From the IMG/VR virus record IMGVR_UViG_2695420373_000007: a stretch of 14,555 bases of DNA. One strand, written 5' to 3'. Below are positions 13,446-13,593 of the stretch, piece by piece. The position numbers and the translations under genes are program-made. Under the pieces are notes generated by a model. That model saw only the letters and a list, made by a program, of their open reading frames with translations. It did no database searches and had not been told where the DNA came from. The stretch is from a virus. Taxonomy: Duplodnaviria > Heunggongvirae > Uroviricota > Caudoviricetes. Each line of letters begins with the position of its first letter. Position 1 is the stretch's first letter.

Positions 13446-13593
13446 TGAATTTTGTGATGCGGTGAATGCGGCTAAGCGCACGCGGAACAGTTAAAGCTAA
13501 AAACAGTGTTATGGGTGGATTCTCTGTATCCGGCGTTAATTATTAACTGGTTAACGTCACCTGGAGGCACCAGGCACCGCATCACAAAATTCA
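13446..13593. repeat. 19-bp perfect inverted repeat TGAATTTTGTGATGCGGTG (13446-13464 and reverse complement at 13575-13593) flanking 110 bp
   Basis: Verified base by base. The right arm ends 6 nt before the SD of the 13611 gene. Confidence 0.9.

Follow-up and report, generated by a model that had tools for sequence, protein, structure and literature searches.

Introduction

Among the prophage factors that regulate cell division in the host, DicF and DicB are textbook examples. RNase III stems, as exemplified by those of pre-16S and pre-23S rRNA, the T7 early mRNA and the lambda N leader, consist of a helix of approximately two turns that is cut on both strands, and such helices are built from sequences that flank a functional RNA or that lie between the cistrons of a phage early operon.

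For RNase III to cut both strands in vivo, the published rules ask for a duplex of approximately 22 bp and two paired positions between the staggered cuts, at least one of them G-C or C-G, with 2-nt 3' overhangs as the outcome (PMC6212723). A cleavage site for this enzyme downstream of dicF is already known in Escherichia coli K-12, where the dicA-dicF-dicB intergenic regions have been listed as RNase III substrates (PMC2777011). A 72-nt DicF generated by RNase III processing of the full-length RNA is described in PMC5069750 and PMC9438474, which are secondary sources citing Faubladier 1990 and are not independent, since one also refers to the other. A 2023 study of the operon placed RNase III at an upstream site only, which forms the 5' end of a 190-nt DicF, and did not report the 72-nt form (PMC10448788).

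A second group of prophage RNAs relevant to the locus described herein is the STnc100/PasD family, of which PasD has been reported from RIL-seq to be an Hfq-associated, trans-acting base-pairing RNA (bioRxiv 10.64898/2026.05.13.724894). The paper describing the distribution of Pas/STnc100 RNAs does not mention DicF or dicB, and we found no paper linking the two.

Here we examined a 14,555-nt stretch of DNA from a tailed-phage genome of the class Caudoviricetes (IMG/VR record IMGVR_UViG_2695420373_000007), hereafter the window, in which an earlier note made from the sequence alone had drawn attention to a long inverted repeat. We find that this repeat takes up the interval between dicF and dicB in the dicBF operon of a Qin-like prophage.

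Results

A perfect inverted repeat separates dicF from dicB

The genes and signals that surround the repeat are as follows.

13384-13436, + strand: DicF sRNA gene, 53-nt form (Rfam RF00039, 76.7 bits at 13385-13436), ending in a Rho-independent terminator
13599-13603, + strand: Shine-Dalgarno sequence GAGGA of dicB, read from the sequence
13611-13799, + strand: dicB, cell-division inhibitor (Pfam DicB, 127 bits; RefSeq annotation of relatives)
13796-13987, + strand: ydfD (Pfam DUF1482, 88 bits; RefSeq annotation of relatives)

The annotated K-12 dicF gene (1649382-1649434) corresponds to window positions 13384-13436, with a single mismatch over 81 nt. Upstream of the repeat are found a YdfA-like DUF1391 protein, a cI-type repressor with HTH and S24 domains, and a P22-type Cro. 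Together with DicF, DicB and YdfD, these neighbours assign the window to a Qin-like lambdoid prophage, of which it represents the immunity and early-left region. The earlier note was right that positions 13080-13610 hold no convincing ORF, but it overlooked the DicF gene in that interval, and neither dicB nor the STnc100-like fold described below had been recognized. Elsewhere in the same prophage there is a hok/sok toxin-antitoxin module on the minus strand (7072-7396), comprising a sok RNA at 7222-7396 (Rfam, 114 bits) and a Hok/Gef ORF at 7075-7284 (Pfam, 81.6 bits).

A 911-bp region encompassing this locus is present in 4739 of 5426 complete E. coli genomes (~87%), with dicB and ydfD annotated under the match, and the dicBF operon is frequently multi-copy in EHEC. 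Sequenced phages, mEp460, Tritos and HannyBb among them, carry the region as well. DicF, the spacer module and dicB are found together in sequenced phages that appear to be complete (mEp460_ev081, Tritos, HannyBb, PhiR42_1 and the PPompW phages), and these records supersede a 2016 claim that DicF and DicB are absent from every phage genome.

A repeat search of the window recovered the two arms that the earlier note had described, 13446-13464 (TGAATTTTGTGATGCGGTG) and 13575-13593 (CACCGCATCACAAAATTCA), each 19 nt long, 100% complementary to the other and separated by 110 nt. As RNA, the helix they form, which we designate P1, is extended by an A-U and a G.U pair beyond the perfect arms to 21 bp:

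13444-13464, + strand: 5' strand of P1, the left arm plus two pairs (repeat search, folding, covariation)
13575-13595, + strand: 3' strand of P1, the right arm plus two pairs (repeat search, folding, covariation)

The left arm begins 9 nt past the end of DicF at 13436, and the U-tract of the DicF terminator abuts it. On the other side, 15 nt separate the helix from the dicB ATG at 13611. The distance to the Shine-Dalgarno sequence, previously given as 6 nt, is 5 nt from the perfect right arm and 3 nt from the end of the 21-bp helix.

In 200 dinucleotide shuffles the expected number of arm matches, with up to three mismatches allowed, was 0.01, and none of the shuffles contained two or more copies, bearing out the view that the repeat is too long to have arisen by chance. 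That it is a functionless chance palindrome is a formal possibility with nothing else in its favour; in addition to the shuffles, conservation of the region in ~87% of complete E. coli genomes and compensatory evolution across genera speak against it, and the covariation alone refutes it. We consider its probability negligible.

The repeat forms a covarying helix in the sense-strand RNA

Two pairs that are G-C and C-G in the window are G.U and U.G in the arms of the K-12 Qin prophage (GAUGUGGUG and CACUGCAUC). These wobbles can pair in the sense RNA only, which identifies P1 as a helix of the sense-strand transcript. In agreement with this, the sense strand was more stable than the antisense strand in 24 of 28 variants, and a covariance model scored the sense strand at 184 bits versus 35 bits for the antisense.

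Two alignments of homologous copies were analysed. The first was a MAFFT alignment of 28 distinct variants, from which RNAalifold recovered, unaided, the inner 9 bp of P1 together with four inner helices. When the full 21-bp stem and the inner helices were evaluated on this alignment, 95.7% of cells were paired, versus 33-42% when the partners were slid out of register, and 13 pairs exhibited changes on both sides, versus 1-4 in the slid controls; the observed values were reached by none of 500 shuffles. The second was built with a covariance model and comprised 33 distinct copies, drawn from Escherichia, Shigella, Citrobacter, Lelliottia, Klebsiella, Arsenophonus and others, compiled with a stricter cutoff that excluded weak antisense echoes of the palindromic stem. 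Loci from genome collections, which were located with a 17-base pattern whose matches were mostly chance occurrences in GC-rich genomes, were retained only if the 3' core was present too. In the second alignment 95.2% of cells were paired versus 35-42% in slid controls, a figure that the fitting of the alignment to the model structure favours and that agrees with the MAFFT result. Of 44 pairs, 30 showed compensatory changes, compared with 6-11 when partners were slid, and within P1 changes on both sides were seen at 16 of the 21 pairs. The covariation among homologous prophage copies that the earlier note had proposed looking for is thus strong and, with the sense-only wobbles and the strand preference of the model, it vindicates the first of the three readings offered there, a long RNA stem.

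The length of the stem varies among relatives. Stems of 18-25 bp are found in Escherichia, Citrobacter, Lelliottia and Pseudescherichia. Lelliottia and Citrobacter retain 21-22 bp despite a different sequence, as exemplified by the 22-bp stem of Lelliottia (AAAGCAGGUUUUAAGGUGUGGUG with CACCACACCUUAAAGCCUGCUU). The copies of P7, D6, Pantoea and Arsenophonus have stems of just 8-14 bp, indicating that a long stem is not required for the fold.

The other two readings treat the arms as DNA. In one, dicB would have an internal promoter with a binding site on either side of it, recognized by the prophage repressor or by some other protein. Perfect inverted 19-mers approximately 129 bp apart are compatible with such sites, and an older study, mentioned in PMC10448788, proposed a promoter upstream of dicB. 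When the whole window, including the cI/cro region, was searched with up to three mismatches allowed, only the two arms themselves were matched, so that nothing resembling a lambdoid operator set was found. There is also no sigma-70-like site on the plus strand of the module, and the internal promoter was not found in PMC10448788. Furthermore, the arm sequences diverge freely yet stay complementary, and the G.U pairs would be meaningless in DNA. We therefore regard regulator sites as very improbable.

In the other, a miniature mobile element would have inserted into the dicF-dicB spacer, with the arms as its terminal inverted repeats; in favour of this, the module is not confined to dicB and is also found ahead of kil, tciA and other genes. 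Against this, the flanks (AAAG|TGAAT...ATTCA|TTGT) carry no target-site duplication, and instead of many dispersed copies we observed a median of two places per E. coli genome, always in the same kind of locus, the early-left region of a prophage. The P7 and D6 copies possess the interior without the long arms, no locus with both dicF and dicB was seen to lack the module, and the arms covary as the closing helix of a conserved, multi-helix RNA fold. An insertion of this kind is likewise highly unlikely.

The enclosed sequence folds into a pseudoknotted module

A module of ~150 nt, comprising helices P1 to P5 and a pseudoknot, fills the interval from the DicF terminator to the ribosome-binding site of dicB. 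A 161-nt segment folds with a minimum free energy of -65.4 kcal/mol (z = -6.9 versus dinucleotide shuffles). The elements enclosed by P1 are listed here.

13468-13483, + strand: hairpin P2, GCGGC-UAAGC-GC.CGC (RNAalifold on the MAFFT alignment; 100% paired and nearly invariant)
13484-13531, + strand: P3, pairing 13484-13486 with 13529-13531 and closing a variable central region (17 two-sided changes at alignment pair 47/139)
13532-13558, + strand: hairpin P4, pairing 13532-13541 with 13549-13558 (two-sided changes in 9 of 10 pairs)
13560-13574, + strand: hairpin P5, CCUGG-AGGCA-CCAGG (a U-A to G-C change in 12-15 sequences)
13488-13494, + strand: 5' strand of the pseudoknot, CAGUUAA, complementary to the P4 loop
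13543-13549, + strand: 3' strand of the pseudoknot, the P4 loop UUAACUG, complementary to CAGUUAA

The near-palindrome GTTAATTATTAAC at 13535-13547, which had been noted within the enclosed segment, is real and corresponds to the 5' strand and loop of P4. Among copies embedded in an operon as this one is, the pseudoknot is 95% paired in the covariance-model alignment and includes one clearly compensatory pair. Copies of the classical STnc100 type, introduced below, have other sequences at the same two places that again match each other (for example AUCAGCG/UGCUGGU, CCAGUC/GACUGG, CUGGUGU/ACACCGG and UGCCAGGUCG/UGACCUGGCA).

With respect to the STnc100 family as a whole, the loop of hairpin 4 forms a pseudoknot with the segment that immediately follows hairpin 1. 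This pseudoknot covaries across many classical copies, with at least 10 distinct matching pairs, and is absent from the Rfam consensus line displayed by cmscan. Simple Hfq-dependent sRNAs are seldom folded so compactly.

The module is a divergent relative of STnc100/PasD RNAs

A sensitive Rfam scan matched 13434-13643 to STnc100 (RF02076) over the full length of the model, with the outer helix of the model corresponding to both arms of the repeat; at 38.8 bits (E = 6.8e-7) the match falls below the Rfam gathering cutoff of 47 bits, the threshold for membership. Eight other embedded copies scored 33-43 bits against the same model. The window also contains a classical member of the family:

1104-1294, - strand: classical STnc100 paralogue (Rfam RF02076, 138 bits) with a short closing stem and its own terminator

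In the reciprocal comparison, a model built from dicB- and kil-type copies alone recognized this classical STnc100 at 1158-1265 (45.3 bits, E = 4e-11). The core TCACCnGGAGGCACCnGGCACC is common to the module and STnc100, and this reciprocal recognition, the shared motifs and the shared order of helices place the two in one family. Judged from these sequence comparisons, the module belongs with the STnc100/PasD prophage sRNAs as a divergent relative embedded in an operon, and the prophage in the window holds both subtypes of the family. The identity of the enclosed RNA as STnc100/PasD-like appears to be unreported in the literature that we searched.

The surroundings of the classical copy match the published PasD/STnc100 synteny. 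It lies just downstream of three tRNA genes (1374-1620, - strand) and a DNA methylase gene (1661-2719, - strand), and upstream of a single gene for a DUF1737 and sialate O-acetylesterase protein (881 to 3, - strand).

We compared the two subtypes using about 100 unique copies from viral contigs. Classical copies have a closing stem of ~6-8 bp and, in a simple scan, a promoter ending 4-7 nt before the stem was seen in approximately 20 of 63 and a terminator 30-80 nt after it in approximately 31 of 63. Embedded copies follow the T-run of a terminator, are without a promoter or terminator of their own and lie 15-38 nt upstream of an ORF. This ORF may be dicB or kil, in P7 and D6 it is tciA/terB, and in further copies it encodes one or another small protein of unknown function. 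The module in the window conforms to this pattern: both a promoter-like site and a terminator are absent there, and it does not have the signals of a stand-alone gene. No function common to the downstream genes was found, as DicB and Kil are the only known division inhibitors among products that otherwise comprise TerB/TciA and proteins of unknown function.

Some copies have noteworthy neighbouring elements. In P7 and D6, a tRNA-Sec-like tRNA (46.6 and 43.1 bits, respectively; cutoff 47) is located at 2304-2388, just upstream of the module; the D6 annotation calls it a tRNA-Ser whose anticodon reads UGA, and it may be a suppressor-type phage tRNA. In E. coli SCPM-O-B-8794, where the module at ~1430-1584 (- strand) has a 10-bp stem, a DicF/KilS-like terminator hairpin is found after the module and not before it.

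A counterpart is found between KilS and kilR in Rac

The same cassette is present in the Rac prophage of K-12 between the sRNA KilS and kilR, with KilS positioned as DicF is in Qin:

NC_000913.3 1418405-1418502, - strand: KilS (K-12 Rac annotation)

The 3' part of KilS is a weak homologue of DicF (39.1 bits against the DicF model, for which the cutoff is 48). As in the dicBF operon, a terminator-ended sRNA is followed by the module, here with a 22-bp stem, and then by a division-inhibitor gene. The Rac spacer differs from that of dicBF in that its stem contains a bulged A and a U.G pair, its central region is different, and the downstream gene is kil, not dicB.

An rnc-dependent site reported in Rac at 1418510 (PMC5371410) was considered as a candidate for cleavage of the Rac stem and rejected, as it maps 8 nt upstream of the annotated 5' end of KilS, outside the module. 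Its proximity to that end suggests that the KilS 5' end may be made by RNase III, like that of the 190-nt DicF; an independent KilS promoter has been suggested in PMC8175672.

P1 is a probable RNase III processing stem

We consider it likely that the repeat is the RNase III processing stem of the dicBF operon that separates dicF from dicB, probably freeing an STnc100-like core. The evidence for dependence on RNase III comes from published work on the K-12 orthologue, which is 97% identical. In the coverage-ratio screen of PMC5371410 (Table S1), an rnc-dependent peak at 1649470, assigned to 'dicF-dicB' and flagged as known, was covered by 26 reads in the rnc mutant and none in the wild type, an entry that is coarse and belongs to a noisy list. 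This K-12 site corresponds to window position 13472, inside the module.

Counted from the dicF 5' end at 13384, the reported 72 nt end at 13455, the exact centre of the 21-bp helix. With this as the first cut, a partner can be placed on the opposite strand:

13455/13456, + strand: inferred RNase III cut C1, which would form the 3' end of the reported 72-nt DicF
13585/13586, + strand: inferred partner cut C2, computed from the geometry of a 2-nt 3' overhang rather than mapped

These cuts would leave 10 bp of helix below the pair, 2 bp between them (G13454-C13585 and U13455-A13584) and 9 bp above. With 21 contiguous pairs, P1 is close to the intramolecular duplex of ~22 bp expected of a substrate, and G13454-C13585 supplies the G-C pair between the cuts if the reported length of 72 nt is taken as the starting point.

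We infer the following sequence of events. Read-through RNA from the dicBF operon would fold into the P1 helix, the closing stem having grown in this subtype from ~7 bp to ~21 bp, which is the length that the RNase III dimer accommodates. RNase III would then cut both strands of P1 at the centre. Cleavage at C1 would give the 72-nt DicF its 3' end (13455), and the paired cleavage would separate dicF from the dicB-ydfD message, which would acquire a new 5' end at ~13586 and a 25-nt leader. The 130-nt core (13456-13585) would probably be released with a remaining stem of 9 bp, the size of the classical STnc100 stem. The cuts may also affect DicB synthesis.

The other reported RNase III site, at the 5' end of the 190-nt DicF (~13246|13247), lies in the 3' arm of a weak repeat, 13183-13194 with 13241-13252, which is imperfect (12 nt, 83%). 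The local fold at this upstream site was no better than that of shuffles (z = 0.0), and the leader as a whole (13080-13445) was no more structured than shuffles (z = -0.6). Just 5' of the imperfect stem is the hairpin CCCTGAAAAGTCAGGG at 13161-13176, in which the earlier note saw a loose resemblance to lambda boxB. The hairpin does exist, and like a lambda nut site it is short, G+C-rich, A-rich in the loop and located in an early-left leader. The resemblance ends there, as the loop is AAAG or AAAAGU and not a GNRA-like pentaloop, no boxA-like match was found in 13080-13200, and no N-like ORF was found among the neighbours. We rejected a nut site on these grounds.

The stem as a control element for dicB

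The stem may instead serve mainly as a cis-acting element that controls the translation or stability of dicB. A rigid helix 3 nt from the Shine-Dalgarno sequence could limit 30S access or shield the 5' end of the message, and its cleavage by RNase III or its melting could switch DicB synthesis, as in the lambda N leader; such a role can coexist with processing by RNase III. The abutment of helix and Shine-Dalgarno sequence is consistent with this, as is the result of duplexfold, which extended the pairing to 25 bp including 13597-13600, so that up to four weak pairs past a bulge reach G13599 and A13600. In addition, every embedded copy is located directly upstream of a small ORF with a good Shine-Dalgarno sequence, and two of these ORFs encode the toxic division inhibitors DicB and Kil. 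However, the core of the Shine-Dalgarno sequence is unpaired in the minimum free energy structure, the spacer between stem and start varies from 15 to ~38 nt among relatives, and the extra pairs are absent from the kil-type copies. Inspection of the variable region by eye for a conserved anti-Shine-Dalgarno segment found only non-conserved matches of 5 bp. The suggestion that the purpose of the stem is to sequester or present the downstream start therefore fits the locus poorly, and we think it rather unlikely that control of dicB is its main role.

Discussion

The inverted repeat of this Qin-like prophage is a helix with a conserved fold, a family relationship and a defined genomic context. 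What appears to be new is that the helix constitutes the elongated closing stem of a pseudoknotted, STnc100/PasD-like RNA, and that it has a twin before kilR. On the reading that we favour, RNase III affects the dicBF operon because P1 is a processing stem. If the spacer is indeed a conserved and excisable STnc100-like RNA, the operon makes one RNA product more than is now counted, and the poorly understood STnc100/PasD family would gain a tractable member in K-12 with a defined route of biogenesis. The compact pseudoknotted fold would also suggest that RNAs of this family do more than simple seed pairing.

A bolder proposal, which we offer tentatively and think may well prove wrong, is that the spacers of both operons, dicF-dicB and KilS-kilR, encode a third regulatory RNA of these operons that was previously unrecognized. 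This would be a pseudoknotted, STnc100/PasD-like molecule of ~130 nt, excised by RNase III via a purpose-built 21-bp stem, and it would either act on other RNAs in trans or work as a structured sensor to which expression of the prophage cell-division inhibitors is coupled. The predicted excised core is without the terminator U-tail that Hfq-dependent sRNAs normally need.

Comparison with known systems

The closest described system is the RNase III site of the K-12 Qin dicBF operon, which is orthologous to that of the window, ~97% identical over 236 nt and located at the same place, after the DicF terminator and before dicB. The 72-nt product reported for K-12 ends inside the left arm, and the stems differ at the two wobble pairs described above. 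The published descriptions of the K-12 site consulted here do not present the stem as closing a larger conserved fold or as related to STnc100.

With STnc100/PasD RNAs the module shares the GGUGAAU...UCACCnGGAGGCACCnGGCACC frame, the order of helices, the AGGCA loop of P5, which is invariant in both embedded and classical subtypes, and the positions of the pseudoknot. It is unlike them in its sub-cutoff score, in the sequence of the first hairpin, in being embedded in an mRNA just before an ORF with no promoter or terminator of its own, and in having a closing stem of ~21 bp versus 6-8 bp. Finally, whereas the RNase III sites of T7 and the lambda N leader are simple hairpins, the stem in the window closes a pseudoknotted domain of 110 nt, and in this respect it is closer, on a small scale, to the case of the rRNA precursors.
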